This document shows, in pieces, positions 8,840-60,844 of a stretch of 64,000 nucleotides of DNA (positions within the stretch are counted from its first letter, which is position 1; each line of letters begins with the position of its first letter). This DNA comes from an uncultured Bacilli bacterium (GTDB lineage: Bacteria; Bacillota_I; Bacilli_A; RF39; UBA660): positions 36,332 through 100,331 of the forward strand of contig CALVSW010000002.1 of assembly GCA_944359625.1 (NCBI GenBank). Direction: 5' to 3'. The notes under the pieces were generated by a model, which made no database searches, was not told where the DNA came from, and worked only from the letters and a program-made list of their open reading frames with translations. A program made the position numbers and the translations under genes.

Positions 8840-8899
8840 TGGTAATAACTGGCTAAGTAAAAAAATAATAATTACCTATAATAATATTAGGTGATCAAT

Positions 8900-9880
8900 A
8901 TGAAAAAATATCAATATATCATCTTTTTCTTAAGTATACTTCTTTTTCCTACTTTCGTATTTGCTTATTCTGATAAAGTAATACTAGGTGGTCAAAATGT
9001 TGGTATAGAAATAAATACTAAAGGAGTATTAGTAGCTGGTTTTTATAAAGTTAATGGTGTTTATAATGCTAGTAGATTACTAATTGGTGATTATATTACT
9101 AAAGTAAATGATAAAGAAGTAAATACTATTAATGAATTAGTTAAAGAAATAGAAAATAATGTTATCGATAATAAAATAACTATTAGTTATCGTCGTGACA
9201 ATGTAGATTATACTACTATCCTTGATTTAGAATATAAAGATGGCGTACATAAAACAGGTTTATATGTTAAAGATACATTATTAGGTAATGGTACGATTAC
9301 TTATATAGATCCTGAAAGTAAGATATATGGCGCTTTAGGACATAACGTAGTTGAATCTATTACAAATGATAGAATAGAATTAAGAACAGGTAATATTTTT
9401 AAAAGTAGTATAAGTAGTATAACTAAGAGTAGTGATGGTAATCCCGGAAGTATCAATACTAAATTTTATCGTAATTATATTTATGGAAATATTAAAAGTA
9501 ATAGTTTAGTAGGTATATATGGTAATTATGTAGAAGAAATACCTAGTGATACTTTAATTGAAATAGCTAAAATTGATGAAGTAAATTTAGGTAAAGCTAA
9601 AATATACACTACTTTAGCTAATAATGAAATAAAATCATATGATATAAATATATTAAAAATAGATAAAAGTAGTGATATAAAAAATTTCTATTTTGAAGTA
9701 ATAGATAAAGAATTATTAAATAAATCAGGAGGAATAGTCCAGGGTATGAGTGGTTCGCCAATTGTACAAAATAATAAATTAATTGGAGCAGTTACTCATG
9801 TTACTATAGATAATGTAAAAACAGGTTATGGTGTTAGTATTATAACAATGTTAGAGACTGGTGATAAAGAAATAAACTAG
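8900..9880 (+). CDS. spoIVB: SpoIVB peptidase (S55), sporulation signalling protease
   Basis: Signal anchor, PDZ-like region (LIGDYITKVNDKEV), GTITYIDPESKIYGALGH and catalytic-Ser context GGIVQGMSGSPIV. ATG at 8900 preferred. Confidence 0.85.
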   Translation: MKKYQYIIFFLSILLFPTFVFAYSDKVILGGQNVGIEINTKGVLVAGFYKVNGVYNASRLLIGDYITKVNDKEVNTINELVKEIENNVIDNKITISYRRDNVDYTTILDLEYKDGVHKTGLYVKDTLLGNGTITYIDPESKIYGALGHNVVESITNDRIELRTGNIFKSSISSITKSSDGNPGSINTKFYRNYIYGNIKSNSLVGIYGNYVEEIPSDTLIEIAKIDEVNLGKAKIYTTLANNEIKSYDINILKIDKSSDIKNFYFEVIDKELLNKSGGIVQGMSGSPIVQNNKLIGAVTHVTIDNVKTGYGVSIITMLETGDKEIN

Positions 9881-9932
9881 TCTTTTTTTATGTAACAAGT
9901 TAAATATATATAAAAAATATTATAGGGATAGT

Positions 9933-10196
9933 ATGGAAAATTTTTTAACTTGGGATATCTTAACTACATATGCTAGTTTTATATCAATTGTTTTTATGAT
10001 AGTAGAATTTATAAAAGATATTAAATTTATAAATAAAATTCCTACAAAGTATCTAAGTTTTACAATAGCATTTATTTTAATAATTATAACTAACTTCGTT
10101 ATGAATACTTTTAAATATATCGATTTAGTATTATATTTCTTATCATCAATATCTATAAGTTTAGGTACGATTGGATTAAGTAAATTTGATAAATAA
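9933..10196 (+). CDS. Small membrane protein (holin-like topology)
   Basis: 87 aa with two or three hydrophobic segments; AGGGA RBS upstream. Function not established. Confidence 0.45.
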   Translation: MENFLTWDILTTYASFISIVFMIVEFIKDIKFINKIPTKYLSFTIAFILIIITNFVMNTFKYIDLVLYFLSSISISLGTIGLSKFDK

Positions 10197-10234: not shown

Positions 10235-10432
10235 TACCCAAATGGCTATTATTGGTCCATGTCGCCGTCCTTTTTCGACGTTGGCACCTCTTCTGCTTAT
10301 GGGGTCCATCAGGACGCGACTGGCCTTGCTTACGGATACCTCTGGGTGACCGGCGGCCTTGGCTTGCGTCCGGTAATCAATCTGCAATCGATTGCTCCTA
10401 AAATAATTAATTTAATTAGCAGATTTCGTTGA
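10235..10432 (+). pseudogene. Start-less 3' fragment of a C-type-lectin-fold (DUF1566/FGE-like) variable-protein gene; candidate decayed DGR variable region
   Basis: Open frame YPNGYYWSMSPSFFDVGTSSAYGVHQDATGLAYGYLWVTGGLGLRPVINLQSIAPKIINLISRFR*. The GC-rich core 10253-10375 has only 13 A in 123 nt on the + strand. A 12-nt palindrome GCAATCGATTGC lies at 10384-10395. Confidence 0.5.
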
Positions 10433-26195: not shown

Positions 26196-26292
26196 TTTAT
26201 TAAAAAATATAATGTTTAACATTATTAAAAAATATAATTGCTAAAAACTGATATCTATGTTATCTTTATTATAGTGAGAATAGAGGTATATT

Positions 26293-27993
26293 ATGAATTA
26301 TCAAAGTATCTTAAAAAGGCAAACATCTATTATCTTAATATCTGTAATTGTTATGGTTTTAATTATAATAGGCGTTAGTTATTCATTATTTATGCAAGTA
26401 GATGAATCTAATGATGTACAAGTAGTAGAAAGTGGTACTTTAGTATTATCTTCAAATAAAGGAAATACAATAACTACTAATAATGTTCCATTATCAGATA
26501 TTGAAGGATTAGGTAGTGAAGGATATACTTTTAGTGTTAAAAATAATGGTACATTAGGATATTTATATAATTTATATATAAATAATAAAGCATCATCTAA
26601 TCCATTAGAATATGAATATATTAAAATATCATTTGATGATGGTCCAGTAACAAAACTAAGTGATTTAGAAGTTGATTCAGAAAAAGGATTAATCTTATTA
26701 GCAAATAATTATATTGCACCTGCTAATGAAGAAGGTGATGTTGTAACTCATAATATTAAAGTATGGATAGAAGAAACTGCACCAACAAGTATAATAGGTA
26801 AAAATATATTACTTCAAATTGATATGTATGGAGAAGCAGGTGAAACTTTTTATAAAGATTCTTCAGGAGCTTCAGAGCCAGAATTATATTCAGGTTTAAT
26901 ACCTGTAACTTATAATGATACAAATGAAATAGTAATTGCTGATTTATATAGTAATTGGTATGATTATGATGCTCATGAATGGGCCAATGCAATACTTATT
27001 GACCAAAATAATACAACAACTAAGAATAAGTATTTAAATGCTGATGGAACATATAAATCTGGAACAGTAGTAGAAGAAACAGATATACTACAAATGTATG
27101 TCTGGGTTCCAAGATATAAGTATCAGTTGTTTAATGTTGAAGGTGCAGATACAGAAGCTCAAATGATAAATATTCAGTTTGAAAGTAATACTACATCTAA
27201 ATCAAATGGTACTCAGAACGGAGAATGGTTAACGCATCCAGCGTTTACCTTTGGTACTACCGAGTTAAATGGAATCTGGATAGGTAAATTCGAATCAAGT
27301 AATGATATATCTGATATTAAGATAATACCAAATGTATCTAGTTTACGTAATCAAACCGTTGGTAATATGTTCAATGCTTCCCGTGCCATTGAAACAAATG
27401 CTAAATATGGTTTATCTGCATCTGAAGTCGATACCCATATGATGAAGAATATGGAGTGGGGTGCCGTAGCTTACCTGACAAATTCTAAGTATGGTAGATA
27501 CGAAGCCTCTGGTAGTTGTATTTCATCTGGATGTGAAGTCTTGATTAATAATAATAATAGTTACACCACCGGATGTGCTGGAGATAGCGTATCAGCATCA
27601 TCAAACTCCTCATGTAATGCTTGGAATACATCAACTGGTGTGAATGCCTCTACTACTGGTAACATCTATGGAATATATGATATGAGTGGTGGAGCATGGG
27701 AGTACGTCATGGGAAATTACAATAAAACCGTTGATTCTTCTGGAATCAATTTTGGTAGTATTGATAGTAAGTATTATGATGTATATACTGGTAATGGTAA
27801 GTTAGGTGATGCTACTAAGGAAACTCAGGGTTGGAATAACGATCGCGCGCTCTTTGTCAGTTCGTTTGGTCCGTGGTTCAAGCTCGGTGGCAGCTACGGC
27901 GGTGGCTCTGATGCGGGGGTCTTCGGCTTCAGCAACGGCGATGGCGGTGCGTATTCCGACGTCTCGTGGCGTGTTGTTTTGTCCTCCGAATAG
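26293..27993 (+). CDS. Membrane-anchored surface protein with C-terminal FGE-sulfatase/C-type-lectin-like domain; candidate DGR variable protein
   Basis: N-terminal TM. NMEWGAVAYL and GIYDMSGGAWEYVMG (GxYDMxGNxWEW-like) motifs. GC-rich, A-poor C-terminal tail ending SWRVVLSSE. Confidence 0.8.
   Translation: MNYQSILKRQTSIILISVIVMVLIIIGVSYSLFMQVDESNDVQVVESGTLVLSSNKGNTITTNNVPLSDIEGLGSEGYTFSVKNNGTLGYLYNLYINNKASSNPLEYEYIKISFDDGPVTKLSDLEVDSEKGLILLANNYIAPANEEGDVVTHNIKVWIEETAPTSIIGKNILLQIDMYGEAGETFYKDSSGASEPELYSGLIPVTYNDTNEIVIADLYSNWYDYDAHEWANAILIDQNNTTTKNKYLNADGTYKSGTVVEETDILQMYVWVPRYKYQLFNVEGADTEAQMINIQFESNTTSKSNGTQNGEWLTHPAFTFGTTELNGIWIGKFESSNDISDIKIIPNVSSLRNQTVGNMFNASRAIETNAKYGLSASEVDTHMMKNMEWGAVAYLTNSKYGRYEASGSCISSGCEVLINNNNSYTTGCAGDSVSASSNSSCNAWNTSTGVNASTTGNIYGIYDMSGGAWEYVMGNYNKTVDSSGINFGSIDSKYYDVYTGNGKLGDATKETQGWNNDRALFVSSFGPWFKLGGSYGGGSDAGVFGFSNGDGGAYSDVSWRVVLSSE
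27853..27978 (+). repeat. DGR variable-region-like repeat (VR1)
   Basis: 126 nt, 60% G+C, 12 adenines. Aligns codon for codon with 59818-59943, with 26 mismatches at template adenines and 15 at other bases. Confidence 0.75.
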
Positions 27994-28007
27994 CTGTGAA
28001 ACAGCTA
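27991..28007 (+). promoter_or_regulatory. Hairpin spanning the stop codon, immediately 3' of VR1 (candidate DGR target-recognition inverted repeat)
   Basis: TAGCTGT-GAA-ACAGCTA: 7-bp perfect stem with a 3-nt loop, beginning at the TAG stop. Confidence 0.5.
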
Positions 28008-28088
28008 TTTTGCACATTTGCACAGAGAAAAAGAAATTTATAACGTGTATAAATAAAAACTATAGTGAAACAAAAGGGCGAGACGTTT

Positions 28089-28124
28089 GCATCCATCCAC
28101 CACAATAGTTTTGTGGATGGATGC
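28089..28124. repeat. Strong 12-bp-stem hairpin in the intergenic region
   Basis: GCATCCATCCAC...GTGGATGGATGC perfect inverted repeat around a 12-nt loop. No downstream T-tract. Confidence 0.8.
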
Positions 28125-49898: not shown

Positions 49899-50590
49899 AT
49901 GGGTTGTATTGATAGAAATAATAAATTTTGTTGTGCTCCTTGTATGCGATTATATCCCGTAGTTGGACCTGCTGATCAGCTGGAAATGATGGAATACCAG
50001 GTGATATTGGCCTAACCGGTCCAACGGGACCTGCCGGAAGTATTGAAGCTAACCCATATAATTTATACGTATCATCTAGTGCTCCAGCTGGTGGTGATGG
50101 TAGTCAAGCAAGTCCTTTTCAAACTATTGTAACCAAATAAATTTAAATATTCCAGAGCTTATTTTAAAAGGTTATGCAGGTAGTGATATATTATTAGAAA
50201 ATTCCGTTGTACCTTTTTTAGTCAGTGCAGATAATGTAACGATTAAAGAATTTAATATGACAAGTGATAATCCGTACCCAGTAGAATTTATTCAAGTAGC
50301 TGGAAATAATGATCAAATTTTAGATAATGAAATTTATGGACCAGAACAAGCTGGAGATTCTTCTAACTGGGTAGTTAATAGAGGCTTTGTTACCCAAGGA
50401 AGTGCGACTAATTTATTAGTACGTAATAATATATTTTATAGTTTACGCCAACTTGTCTATTTAAATCCCAATTCCACCAAATGCGGTAGATATTGCTTTA
50501 TTATCTGGGACTAAAACTGGTGCACCATATGATCCAACTAGTGCTTTAACAGCAAATAATAGTAATGCTACAATTAGTGATCAACGATAA
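49899..50590 (+). pseudogene. Decayed collagen-like-repeat / right-handed beta-helix (pectin-lyase-fold) surface protein gene
   Basis: ATG at 49899, then Gly-X-Y triplets readable only after a 1-nt frameshift (GPAGSAGNDGIPGDIGLTGPTGPAGS), then GGDGSQASPFQTI. Downstream beta-helix pieces lie in three frames with stops. Confidence 0.6.
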
Positions 50591-57194: not shown

Positions 57195-57238
57195 CAAAAA
57201 TATTAGAATAATATATAATGTATGTAGAGGTGAATTGT

Positions 57239-58447
57239 ATGCTAGTAAGAGAAGATTATTTATCTAAAATAAGAGGATTTTATGATTCTGATTTAATTAA
57301 AATATTAGTAGGAATAAGAAGATGTGGAAAATCAGTTATTTTAAATCAAATAATAGATGAATTAAAAGAAAAGAAAAATATAGATGAGGAACATATAATA
57401 TTTATTAATTTTGAATTTATTGAATTTGAAGATTTATTAGATTATAAAAAATTAAATAAATATATAAAAGATAAGATTAAAGATGATAAAATATATTACT
57501 TATTTTTAGATGAAGTTCAAAATGTTGATAACTTTGAAAAAGTTGTTAATTCCTTAAGGGCTTCAGTTAAAAATATTAGCATATTTTTAACTGGCTCTAA
57601 TAGTAAAATGTTATCAGATGAATTATCAACGGTTTTATCAGGTAGATATGTATTATTTAATATAAATCCTTTATCTTATAAAGAATATATTTCTTTAACT
57701 AGTAAAGATGGTAAAGATTTAAATAATTTTTGGGATTATGCTAAATGGGGAGGATTACCTAATAGATGTCAATTTACTAATGAAATAGATATAAAGAATT
57801 ATCTTCATAGTGTATATGATTCAATTATTTTAAGAGATGTAGTAAAAAGACTTAATTTAAAGGATACTGTATTATTTGATATGATATTACAATACTTAAT
57901 AGAAATTGCAGGTCGAGAATTCTCTGCTGATAATATTATAAAATATTTAGAAAAAGAAAATAAAAAAATATCTAATGAAACATTATATAATTATTTAGAT
58001 GCTTTATGTAAAGCATTAATATTAAAAAAAGTATATAGATATGATATATCAGGTAAAGGTGTTTTAAAAACATTAAATAAGTATTATGCAACTGACTTGG
58101 GAATTGCCCAAATTAAGAATAATAATCCTGAATTTAAAACTTATATAGTATTAGAAAATATAGTATATAATGAATTAATAAATAGAAACTATGAAGTATA
58201 TATAGGTAAAACCAAAAATGGTGAAATAGATTTTTTAGTTAAAAAAGATGGCTTAATAAAGTATATACAAGTAAGTTATGAATTATATGGTAATGATAGT
58301 GCGATTGAAAGAGAATTTGGGGCATATAAATATATTGATGATAATTATCCTAAATATGTTATATCACTTGATAAAATAGATTTATCTCGTGATGGTATTA
58401 TACACTTAAATTTAATAGATTTCTTATTAAATGATAAATTACTATAA
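57239..58447 (+). CDS. AAA ATPase, AAA_14/DUF4143 family (intact copy)
   Basis: GIRRCGKS Walker A, LFLDEVQ Walker B, and a C-terminal DUF4143-like region. ATG at 57239 after GTAGAGGTGA. Confidence 0.8.
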   Translation: MLVREDYLSKIRGFYDSDLIKILVGIRRCGKSVILNQIIDELKEKKNIDEEHIIFINFEFIEFEDLLDYKKLNKYIKDKIKDDKIYYLFLDEVQNVDNFEKVVNSLRASVKNISIFLTGSNSKMLSDELSTVLSGRYVLFNINPLSYKEYISLTSKDGKDLNNFWDYAKWGGLPNRCQFTNEIDIKNYLHSVYDSIILRDVVKRLNLKDTVLFDMILQYLIEIAGREFSADNIIKYLEKENKKISNETLYNYLDALCKALILKKVYRYDISGKGVLKTLNKYYATDLGIAQIKNNNPEFKTYIVLENIVYNELINRNYEVYIGKTKNGEIDFLVKKDGLIKYIQVSYELYGNDSAIEREFGAYKYIDDNYPKYVISLDKIDLSRDGIIHLNLIDFLLNDKLL

Positions 58448-58592: not shown

Positions 58593-59163
58593 AATAAGAA
58601 TACTGGAAAAACTCCTAGATTAATAGATGAATGGGAAATTGCTCCTAAGTTATGGGACGCAGTTAGATTCGAAGTGGATCATCGAGGAGTTGAAGGCCAA
58701 TTTATTTTAACTGGATCATCAGTTCCTGCTAATATGCAAAATGTTTTCCATACCGGCACTGGTAGATTTAGTTGGCTCTTAATGCGACCAATGAGTTTAT
58801 ATGAGTCTGGTGAATCAACTGGAGAAGTTAGTTTATTTAGTTTATTTGATAATTCAACAAAAATAAGTGGTATTAATAAATATACTTTAGAAGATATAGC
58901 GTATTTATGTTGTAGAGGTGGTTGGCCAAGGAGTATAGATATGGATAAAGATATTGCCTTAGACCAAGCATATGATTATTATGAAGAGTTTTAATTTAGA
59001 TATTTCAAGAGTAGATAATGTGACTAGAAATCCAGAAAGAGCAAAACACTTAATGAGGAGTTATGCTAGAAATATTGGAAGTCAAGCATCTAATGAAACA
59101 TTAAGAAATGACATGATTTCTAATGATTTAAATACATCAAACAAGAAATATATAGTCAAATGA
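58593..59163 (+). pseudogene. 5'-truncated, frameshifted AAA/DUF4143 ATPase remnant
   Basis: Frame opens after a TAA with …LIDEWEIAPKLWDAVRFEVDHRG…ILTGSS…. A frameshift lies near 58990. Homology to the 52.5-kb copy (RGGWP.SI, ERNPE, SYARNI) is lost after about 59140. Confidence 0.6.
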
Positions 59164-59817
59164 TGGTATACAATATAATGCAATCAATAACAAATGATTT
59201 AGATACTGAAATAGACCAGAGAAAATATAAATATACAATGAAAATTAATATTAATATGGCGATCGGTTTTGTAAAAAGATTTTTATTAAAAATATTATTA
59301 GAAGATAATGAAGAAAAAATGCAGAAATTATCAGATTTATTATTTGAAAACATTTTAAAGAATATAGTTCCAATTAGAAATGATCGACATTATAAAAGAG
59401 ATAATGTTCGTAAGAATAAACATCCTATAAATAAAAGGAAATCTATATAAAATTATTATATGTTTATAAACATTTCTTTTTGTCGTAGTAAAATTTACTA
59501 ATTCATATAAAAAGGAAAAAGATAAATTAAATTATCATAATTTATCTTTCCTTAAGTTAATGACATTGAGTTAAACTAGTGGATTTTTATTTTATTAGCA
59601 TTTAAAGGGCATTTAATTCATGCTAATAGTAATAATTTTATTGTTAGTATTTTAAGAAAAATATTAGAAGTAGATGGTATTGTTAAAGTTATTTATTTAA
59701 CTAGTAAATTTGAAGATGCTAGTATTAAAAAGACTATTGAAGATGAAATAAATAGAATGGTATAATTTAATTGCTTATAAAATAAATAAGCTGGGATTAG
59801 GTTATTTAAACGTGAAC

Positions 59818-59943
59818 TTCGTCAATTCGAACAATCCGTGGCTCAAACGCGGTGGTAACCACAACAATGGCACCAATGCAGGCGTGTTCAACTTCAATAA
59901 CAACAATGGTAATGCGAATTCCAACAATTCGTTCCGGGTTGTT
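59818..59943 (+). repeat. DGR template-repeat-like segment (TR), orphan
   Basis: 126 nt with 38 adenines; 16 of 42 codons are AAY. Reads FVNSNNPWLKRGGNHNNGTNAGVFNFNNNNGNANSNNSFRVV. Aligns without gaps to VR1 at 27853-27978. Confidence 0.7.
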
Positions 59944-60198
59944 CTAGAAACGATAAATTAAATTATAGTATAAAAGTTTTAAACATATCTAACTACAAGA
60001 TAGTAAGAGTTTAGAATATTCTATAGAGGTATTTATCGAAATCTAGTTCCAATCTATAAAATAGGTTAAAATAAGAATTACGCTCTGGTTAGTAAATGTA
60101 TTTGAAAATTAGAGAGTAATAACCCCATAGCAAGTTTGTTATGGGGTAATTTTATTATATAATTATATATAATATGTATATACTATATATATAATATA

Positions 60199-60252: not shown

Positions 60253-60546
60253 ATGAAAACTTTGACAAATGGGATTATTAATGTTCATGTTGATCCTAAA
60301 GATAAAGAAGATGCTACAATTATTTTAAAAGATTTGGGATTAAATATGAGTACTCTAATAAATATGACTTTAAAACAAGTTATTAAAAGAAAAGCTATTC
60401 CTTTTGATGTTGCAATACCGTCATATAATGATAGATTAGAAAATGCTTTAAAAGAAAGTAAAGTTATTGAAAAAGAATATAAGAGTGGTACAAGAAAAGG
60501 CTATAACAATGTTAATGAAATGATGGAGTCTATTATAGATGATTGA
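60253..60546 (+). CDS. RelB/DinJ family antitoxin
   Basis: 97 aa; …VDPKDKEDATIILKDLGLNMSTLINMTLKQVI is a ribbon-helix-helix DinJ-like N-terminus. Overlaps the toxin gene by 8 nt. Confidence 0.8.
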   Translation: MKTLTNGIINVHVDPKDKEDATIILKDLGLNMSTLINMTLKQVIKRKAIPFDVAIPSYNDRLENALKESKVIEKEYKSGTRKGYNNVNEMMESIIDD

Positions 60547-60844
60547 TTTATCTTTAAATACTAAATGTAAAATTGATTATACTAGTGAGTTCAAAAGACA
60601 GCTTAAGAAAGTTATAAAACAAGGTAAAGATATTAATATATTGTTAGAAGTGATTAGTAAATTAGCTAATCAAGAGGAATTAGATTTGAAATATAAAAAT
60701 CATCATTTGATAAATGATAATACTTATAGAGATTGTATGGAATGTCATTTAAAACCTTATTGGTTACTAGTATATAAATATATTGATAATAATTTAGTAT
60801 TGTTACTTGTTACAACAGGTAGCCATAGTGACATCTTAGAGTAG
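60539..60844 (+). CDS. yafQ: YafQ/RelE family mRNA interferase toxin
   Basis: …FKRQLKK…HHLINDNTYRDCMECHLKPYWLLVYKYIDNNLVLLLVTTGSHSDIL matches the YafQ signature (H…CH..PD.LLIY…TGSHSDL). Confidence 0.8.
   Translation: MIDLSLNTKCKIDYTSEFKRQLKKVIKQGKDINILLEVISKLANQEELDLKYKNHHLINDNTYRDCMECHLKPYWLLVYKYIDNNLVLLLVTTGSHSDILE

Follow-up and report, generated by a model that had tools for sequence, protein, structure and literature searches.

A probable remote target of a diversity-generating retroelement in the AT-rich chromosome of an uncultured gut Bacilli bacterium

A 64-kb stretch of DNA from an uncultured Bacilli bacterium of the RF39 lineage (assembly GCA_944359625.1, contig CALVSW010000002.1, positions 36,332 to 100,331), hereafter the window, in whose coordinates positions are given, carries a gene for a 566-residue protein that ends in a short GC-rich segment. 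This segment, 27837-27978, is very probably the variable region (VR) of a remote target written by a diversity-generating retroelement (DGR) of a class found in uncultured gut Bacilli, which comprises a MutS-like protein (MSL), Avd and a reverse transcriptase (RT). The recognition elements of the VR are intact, and the diversified residues are the last ~47 codons of a C-type-lectin/FGE-like domain. A preliminary description of this DNA, made from its letters alone, had placed a DGR VR at the extreme C-terminus of such a fold. The predicted fold, the concentration of allelic variation at the adenines of a template repeat (TR) and the presence of DGR cassettes beside homologous genes all bear it out. 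Its further claim that the VR is probably still targetable fares less well: RT, Avd and MSL genes are absent from the 64 kb and from 10 kb to the right of it, and the single TR that the window contains is not cognate to this VR. We put the chance that the VR is still being diversified in this genome slightly below even, because the machinery and the cognate template are absent from the window and the population displays both diversification and decay.

The variable region and the protein that carries it

The window averages 24.1% G+C over its 64 kb, and just two stretches in it have 16 or fewer adenines per 120 nt, the VR tail and 10241-10386. The final 126 nt of the open reading frame (ORF) including the stop codon (27868-27993) are 61.9% G+C and hold 14 adenines; with the stop codon left out, the corresponding 126 nt (27865-27990) are 61.1% G+C with 13 adenines. 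The figures first given, 60% G+C and 12 adenines, thus need a small correction, the GC-rich and adenine-poor character of the tail standing as described, and the C-terminal peptide quoted at that time is indeed encoded by this ORF. Two spurious ORFs overlapping the end of the gene also exist and coincide with the GC-rich patch, which is short of A/T-rich stop codons, so that their attribution to the jump in composition holds. Rfam and tRNA scans of the 64-kb window were empty; the GC-rich patches are therefore not known RNAs.

The allelic variation of the VR bears an adenine-directed signature. Six alleles were compared: three from the gatB locus (window, L001, L095), two from a second locus, HTH-target-serS (L093, L094), and that of L004, with adenine positions taken from the TR located in the window at 59810-59945, a sequence homologous to the compared alleles but not derived from them. 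Variable sites fall on 37 of 40 TR-adenine positions as against 21 of 93 non-adenine positions (odds ratio 42, p=1.5e-14). In protein alignments, the N-terminal half is invariant and the last ~50 residues mix hypervariable with invariant columns, following the pattern WNxDYAxFVxSSxPWFxRGGxYxxGSxAGVFxFxxxxGxAxSxxS[WF]RVVLSSE in which PWF, RGG, AGVF and RVVL form invariant blocks. At least 10 distinct VR alleles occur among sequences identical over their N-terminal 290 residues. Among the compared alleles, that of the window has the fewest adenines and the highest G+C content (12 A, 61% G+C), and its frame and hairpin are intact.

Homologues of the 566-residue protein number more than 7000 at E<=1e-5. 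Metagenome-assembled genomes (MAGs) assigned to uncultured gut Bacilli, Mollicutes or "Tenericutes" account for nearly all of them, and a single MAG often carries six to nine or more target paralogues. At six loci (L074, L014, L020, L025, L039 and L108), homologous targets adjoin canonical DGR cassettes arranged in the order target-VR, TR, a ~200-nt spacer ending in a terminator, a MutS_I protein (the MSL), bAvd and RT; the RTs are RVT_1 proteins with YMDD and IGNYTSQ motifs. The co-occurrence of MSL with avd is general among MSL-containing DGRs (Wu et al. 2018, PMC5758913). In the working cassettes of these relatives, VR and TR differ almost exclusively at adenines, with adenine/non-adenine mismatches of 10/0 in L020, 20/2 in L025 and 19/1 in L108, the last of these cassettes lying within a conjugative element, amid genes for a MobL relaxase, a TraG-like coupling protein and T2SSE. 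Other arrangements are encountered as well. L014 (11400-13230) has three TR-like copies between target and MSL-Avd-RT, none of which cleanly matches the adjacent VR (9-26 non-adenine mismatches). L105 (4440-7029) consists of two nearly identical tandem TR-spacer units followed by MSL, bAvd and RT; it has no adjacent C-type-lectin target, and its TR type fits many "SARAVL" targets in other MAGs such as BRZ_AH__bin14. Targets that are purely remote thus exist in this clade, as non-adjacent targets are documented for DGRs generally (PMC5758913).

The fold of the protein is that of known DGR variable proteins. A full-length model was mediocre (pLDDT 70) and matched TaqVP even so; the domain model used in its place, which covers residues 190-566 and is based on 91 sequences, reached a pLDDT of 91.8 and a pTM of 0.93. 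With this domain, the top PDB match in Foldseek was TaqVP (5vf4; E=2e-10, probability 1.0, TM 0.44), followed by five Mtd variants (1yu0-1yu4, ~1e-4) and then by the FGE-like domains of PorK, EgtB and ToxD, so that the C-terminal domain models as the C-type-lectin/FGE fold that had been anticipated. The two lectin-type motifs pointed out beforehand are present, NMEWGAVAYL at residues 386-395 and GIYDMSGGAWEYVMG at residues 460-474. The suggested search against the FGE-sulfatase family (PF03781) returned a match over residues 436-481 only (E=2.3e-4) which, at 21.4 bits, stays under the 23.3-bit gathering cut-off; some distant homologues carry precomputed PF03781 matches.

At the other end of the protein, K8/R9 precede ~20 hydrophobic residues, and lipoprotein (lipobox) and SipW-type models did not match. 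Surface display through this N-terminal anchor, as initially proposed, is a conjecture consistent with the predicted hydrophobic helix; the protein would be either secreted or surface-bound. The beta-sandwich that follows had no Pfam match in the window protein, and distant homologues of the target show precomputed matches to PF12389.

The hairpin at the stop codon and the template repeat

Immediately downstream of the VR, a conserved 3' segment occupies a position like that of an initiation of mutagenic homing (IMH) site. It varies at a single C/T site, 27984, and is unlike the TR 3' end CTAGAAACGATAAAT; the two sequences, VR and TR, part after GTTGT. The segment runs into a hairpin, AATAGCTGT-GAA-ACAGCTATT, which had been described as a 7-bp stem at 27991-28007. 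The hairpin is real and does span the TAG stop, with a stem that is in fact 9 bp long and starts 11 nt past the last variable position (27978); three of its nine pairs are G-C. Folded as DNA, it has a free energy of -9.8 kcal/mol (z=-3.65 against shuffled sequences), whereas the TR 3' flank has no hairpin (z=+0.61), in keeping with the expectation that such an element lies just 3' of the VR and is missing from the template. Perfect 9-bp hairpins are not rare in the window, with 28 matches (~20 distinct sites) against ~10 in shuffles, and the significance of this one consequently rests on comparison among family members.

Among 93 distinct C-terminal ends in the family, 23 of 43 that are GC-rich have a hairpin other than a terminator at the stop codon, as against 1 of 50 that are AT-rich (p=4e-9). 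The loop is GAA, GGA, GAAA, GAGA, GTAA or TTTA, and stems differ among subfamilies. In the stems homologous to that of the window, the changes are compensatory: the window has TAGCTGT/ACAGCTA, L002 TAGTTGC/GCAACTA and L108 TAACTGC/GCAGTTA, with four stem pairs changed on both sides across the three. In L108 the change alters the stop codon itself from TAG to TAA, the GAA loop and its position being kept. Pairing of the stem amounts to 79% at the true register as compared with 31-59% at slid registers. The preliminary description had proposed to look for conservation of the hairpin relative to VR ends in other DGR targets of the same genome; among relatives, the hairpin is found at the same place in L002 and L108. 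The former locus (L002, 10001-13400) holds two tandem targets of 564 and 508 residues whose VRs are identical over the 171 nt compared, and its hairpin, GAATAGTTGC-GAA-GCAACTATTC, includes a GCGAAGC motif. An intrinsic terminator was also considered for the window hairpin and rejected, as no T run meeting terminator criteria follows it.

The covariation agrees with the finding of Guo et al. (2011, PMC3240598) that, in the Bordetella phage system, the structure of the hairpin stem is required and its sequence is not. Their consensus is a GC-rich stem of 7-10 bp with a 4-nt GRNA loop, separated from the end of the VR by 4-34 bp. The window hairpin fits in stem length and distance and departs from this consensus in lacking both the GC-rich stem and the GRNA tetraloop.

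A search for direct and inverted repeats between 24 and 36 kb revealed no TR near the target gene. A whole-window ungapped scan for VR homologues identified a single one, designated TR-beta, 32 kb downstream of the target and in register with the VR over ~135 nt. Read in frame, it encodes NVNFVNSNNPWLKRGGNHNNGTNAGVFNFNNNNGNANSNNSFRVVL, and its richness in AAC codons is the hallmark of DGR template repeats. TR-beta appears to belong to a free-standing transcription unit composed of a promoter-like site (59737-59766), the TR, a ~180-nt spacer and a terminator (60122-60147) with its T run. It keeps the motif GGGATTAGG ahead of the TR and shares with the cassette loci of relatives the spacer motifs ATAGAGGT...CTAGTTCC and CTGGTnAGTA...GAAAATnAGA. 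RNAalifold on the TR-spacer regions returned the terminator hairpin only, its yield being limited by the poor alignment. Directly after the terminator, where related cassettes have MSL-Avd-RT, stands a RelB antitoxin/YafQ toxin pair (60253-60844). On the upstream side (58674-59450) are three short ORFs of 106, 63 and 96 residues, the first weakly matching AAA_14 (E=0.0039), which have the look of fragments left by a pseudogenized second AAA_14/DUF4143 ATPase beside the intact copy at 57218-58447. TR-beta is 100% identical in L082 and L083, strains that match the window over 811 nt there. It is best described as a paralogous template in what looks like a stripped-down cassette.

By homology to the canonical cassettes of relatives and to the Bordetella phage paradigm, we infer the following course of diversification. 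The TR-spacer RNA would be reverse-transcribed by an RT-Avd complex that misincorporates opposite template adenines, here those of AAC codons; the resulting cDNA would replace the VR; and the conserved 3' segment together with the GAA-loop hairpin at the stop codon would identify the VR rather than the TR as recipient.

Table 1. Positions of the target gene, its variable region and associated elements in the window
Feature	Position	Strand	Basis
Target (variable protein) gene, 566 aa	26293..27993	+	ORF list; Pfam on neighbours; syntenic orthologues L001 and L095
N-terminal hydrophobic helix, residues ~3-34 (predicted signal-anchor or uncleaved signal peptide)	26299..26394	+	AlphaFold2 helix 3-34
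N-terminal beta-sandwich domain, residues ~44-182	26422..26838	+	Strands in full-length model, pLDDT 65-80
C-type-lectin/FGE-like domain, residues 190-566, VR at its end	26860..27990	+	Domain model and Foldseek
Variable region (VR), ~61% G+C, adenine-depleted	27837..27978	+	Composition; in-register homology to TR; allelic sites; hypervariable protein columns
Conserved 3' segment TTGTCCTCCGAATAG, IMH-like position, includes stop codon	27979..27993	+	Near-invariant in alleles
Hairpin, 9-bp stem, GAA triloop, overlaps TAG stop	27989..28009	+	DNA fold; comparative conservation
Duplication unit: 67 nt upstream, gene, hairpin and ~25 nt	26226..28032	+	blastn boundaries against L093, L094 and L096; gene contexts
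Two spurious overlapping ORFs, 27802-28023 (-) and 27806-28108 (+)	27802..28108	.	ORF list; coincide with stop-poor GC-rich patch
Template repeat (TR-beta), intergenic, adenine-rich, 12 AAC codons	59810..59945	+	Whole-window scan; alignment to VR
Apparent free-standing TR and spacer transcription unit	59737..60157	+	Alignment with TR-spacers of L074, L020, L025 and L039; promoter/terminator scan

Present activity and competing explanations

Several observations weigh against a VR that is written and maintained by a DGR at work in this genome. The window contains no YxDD or IGNxxSQ RT motif in any reading frame; a tblastn search that used the RT, the Avd and the MutS-like protein from a related cassette as queries gave no match in the window; and the 10 kb past the right end of the window, as represented in L082-L085, contain housekeeping genes only, with no RT, Avd or MSL. 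Within the window, an adenine-only VR/TR pair was not found: TR-beta differs from the VR at 28 of its 40 adenines and also at 17 non-adenine positions, and 8 of the latter are fixed across the 7 alleles examined, among them PWF instead of PWL and GCGGGGGTC instead of GCAGGCGTG. The window VR moreover has 2-3 private non-adenine substitutions. In the nearest syntenic strain, L001, whose flanks are ~99.9% identical to those of the window, 7-18% of positions differ across 27300-27985; this divergence reaches ~500 nt upstream of the VR and hence is due to recombination and not to homing alone. L001 and L095 agree in the 3' half of the VR and differ in its 5' half, a pattern opposite to that of 3'-initiated partial homing, which points to crossovers instead. 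Finally, identical VRs are shared by genes that differ elsewhere (window and P0134; P0001 and P0130; P0123, P0124 and P0133).

The comparison of strains proposed at the outset as a check on hypervariability restricted to the VR has therefore a double outcome: variation is concentrated at TR-adenine positions as predicted, and it is not restricted to the VR, recombination extending well upstream. Other signs of exchange accompany it. The VR of P0126 equals that of the window bar two residues at the 5' edge, and the whole duplication unit recurs at a second chromosomal locus (HTH-target-serS) in contigs of the same cohorts. Non-adenine VR positions define at least two sub-haplotypes (GGCTCT versus GGTAGC and TGGCGG versus TTCCGG), which suggests more than one template variant in the population.

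The cognate TR is expected to have the form AACGCGAACTTTGTCAAYTCGTCTAATCCGTGGTTCAAACGCGGTGGCAACTACAACAATGG...GCGGGGGTCTTCAACTTCAAC. A scan of JGI metagenomes for the VR/TR motif produced only chance matches in unrelated GC-rich DNA, and two scans of viral contigs, one for the hairpin and one for the TR motif inferred to be cognate, came back empty; the RT relatives present in viral contigs are only 33-47% identical. Two prevalent RT clusters sampled for the RT of this species led to cassettes of other lineages (L105 and L108), with TRs that do not match the window VR. An exact look-up of contigs for the target protein and for its identical twin P0134 found none on record.

What these results bring into question is present activity. 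There is close to an even chance that the VR is a fossil, once written by a DGR in a lineage that has since lost the RT/Avd or the cognate TR, with alleles that recombine among paralogues and strains and slowly erode; this explanation concerns the present state only and is compatible with a DGR-written VR. Besides the absence of RT, Avd and MSL from the window and the adjacent 10 kb, it draws on the degraded look of the TR-beta locus, which lacks a target on its upstream side and MSL-Avd-RT on its downstream side and adjoins pseudogene fragments of AAA_14/DUF4143 type, and on the identical VRs of strains that otherwise differ and of the tandem targets in L002. The population provides further instances of decay. 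In the L096/L097 allele, drift towards AT amounts to 28 non-adenine changes, C>T and G>A for the most part, and the hairpin is gone; a C>A mismatch interrupts the stem in L095. In the sister strains L084 (7365-7922) and L085 (7366-7908), at the spot corresponding to ~59.4-59.96 kb of the window, a 185-residue ORF joins an AAA_14-like N-terminus to a truncated, internally deleted target fragment, in which a VR-like 5' half continues in register into the 3' half of TR-beta and its spacer; this is a VR::TR recombinant. In L098 (1258-3297), a 487-residue paralogous target with the same VR type, hairpin and flank as in the window is followed by a lone 118-residue MutS_I gene and then by rnc-smc, and TR, Avd and RT are absent there. 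Erosion is nevertheless not what the window VR itself displays: it is the most adenine-depleted and GC-rich allele, with an intact frame and a perfect hairpin, in a genome of 24% G+C. The 10 or more VR alleles attached to identical N-terminal sequences likewise speak against a fossil, as does the existence of L105-like RT cassettes devoid of an adjacent target. Since relatives have such cassettes, the absence of RT from 74 kb says little about the genome as a whole.

A wider arrangement can be imagined in which the DGR is dispersed and modular, with free-standing TR-spacer RNA genes, in some cases several and of different types, many target paralogues that have a GAA-loop hairpin "address" in common, and MSL-Avd-RT encoded elsewhere in the chromosome or brought in by a conjugative element. 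It is unlikely, and unsupported for this genome. If true, chromosomal VRs and orphan TRs like TR-beta would be serviced in trans and could be re-activated by a horizontally acquired RT, and recombination between donor and recipient repeats would have given rise to the VR::TR hybrids as a by-product.

It is quite improbable that TR-beta itself acts as the donor over 32 kb, the non-adenine differences being RT errors or later mutations. TR-beta is admittedly the only VR homologue in the window, in register over ~135 nt with 28 of its 40 adenines changed in the VR; it keeps its promoter-like site, spacer motifs and terminator and is fully conserved in two other strains; and L001 and L094 match it at every non-adenine position of ~27940-27977, L001 having one further mismatch at 27978. 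Working pairs of the family, however, have 0-2 non-adenine mismatches where this one has 17, and homing would have erased the eight differences that are fixed in all seven alleles. In addition, the 3' end of TR-beta, CTAGAAACG, is unlike that of the VR and nearer to L002-type VRs of another species. We therefore regard TR-beta as a paralogous template and not as the source of the present VR.

That no retroelement is involved, the tail being either a hypervariable cassette driven by recombination or GC-rich DNA acquired horizontally and the hairpin a plain transcription terminator of the gene, is hardly credible: mosaic variation is plain across 27300-27985 and between paralogous loci, and 9-bp hairpins are not rare in the window, but the variable sites follow the adenines of a homologous TR that is independent of them, the canonical cassettes in which homologues lie have mismatches almost only at adenines, the fold matches solved DGR variable proteins, no adequate T run follows the hairpin, and its GAA loop and position persist through compensatory stem changes even where TAG becomes TAA.

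As to its surroundings, the target gene lies between gatCAB on one side and, on the other, a gene for a He_PIG protein followed by rimP-nusA-infB (Pfam families). Elsewhere in the window, a second adenine-depleted, GC-rich module of ~190 nt (10235-10402, + strand) encodes YPNGYYWSMSPSFF...GLRPVINLQS. Copies are found ~8 kb past the right end of the window, in L082/L083 (19879-20067, - strand) and L084 (19903-20090, - strand); they are 84-86% identical and differ at discrete codons, as would a different DGR VR class or a relic of one. In the window, the module has stop codons and a 1-nt frame difference upstream; in L082 it forms a 59-residue ORF. Pfam, NCBIfam and Rfam gave no match to the module. 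At 8891-10196, just upstream of this VR-like relic, are an ORF that resembles, by eye, a SpoIVB-like peptidase and then an 87-residue ORF with hydrophobic segments. A third patch, intergenic and GC-rich (49930-50055), contains collagen-like Gly-X-Y repeats (GPAG...GPTGPAGS), apparently frameshifted, and has no Rfam match.

Comparison with known systems

The locus adds a well-documented remote DGR target from a very AT-rich uncultured gut Bacilli bacterium (RF39/Mollicutes-like), in which the contrast in composition of the VR allows such targets to be found before any RT is located. The comparative set provides natural covariation support for the VR-proximal hairpin, its GAA triloop being a variant of the GRNA-tetraloop rule, and it illustrates how DGR loci decay and recombine, as seen in the orphan TR, the VR::TR hybrids, the MutS-like gene that stands alone and the VRs eroded towards AT. 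The established view of how DGRs work is left unchanged by these findings.

The variable proteins TaqVP of Thermus aquaticus (PDB 5VF4) and Mtd of phage BPP-1 (PDB 1YU0-1YU4) share with the window protein a C-type-lectin/FGE-like fold and the location of variable residues at the extreme C-terminus. Sequence identity to them is 11-17% only, with TM values of ~0.3-0.45. The window protein differs further by its N-terminal hydrophobic helix and beta-sandwich and by the lack of a phage tail-fibre context, its gene being chromosomal and placed among housekeeping genes. In BPP-1, a hairpin is likewise located just 3' of the VR, beside a TAG stop (PMC3240598); it has an 8-bp GC-rich stem and a GAAA loop, whereas that of the window has an AT-rich stem and a 3-nt GAA loop.

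Among MSL DGRs, the 'Architecture D' of Wu et al. (2018, PMC5758913) corresponds to the TR-MSL-Avd-RT cassettes in which the targets of relatives are found, with the difference that MSL, Avd and RT are all absent from the window. The TvpA family of Treponema denticola and the Lineage 4 DGRs (Wu et al. 2018) offer another parallel to the present family, whose paralogous targets are scattered over the chromosome and have a single VR type and recognition hairpin in common. In published work, a remote target was assigned only on the strength of adenine-only VR/TR differences, which the sole TR of the window does not display. A last comparison concerns the DGRs of gut Bacteroides borne on integrative and conjugative elements (ICEs), which diversify surface adhesins (Macadangdang et al., bioRxiv 10.1101/2024.11.15.621889). 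They belong to another phylum, their target is a type V pilin and not a C-type-lectin domain with a beta-sandwich, and the window copy resides on no evident mobile element; the likeness lies in the related L108 cassette, set amid conjugation genes.

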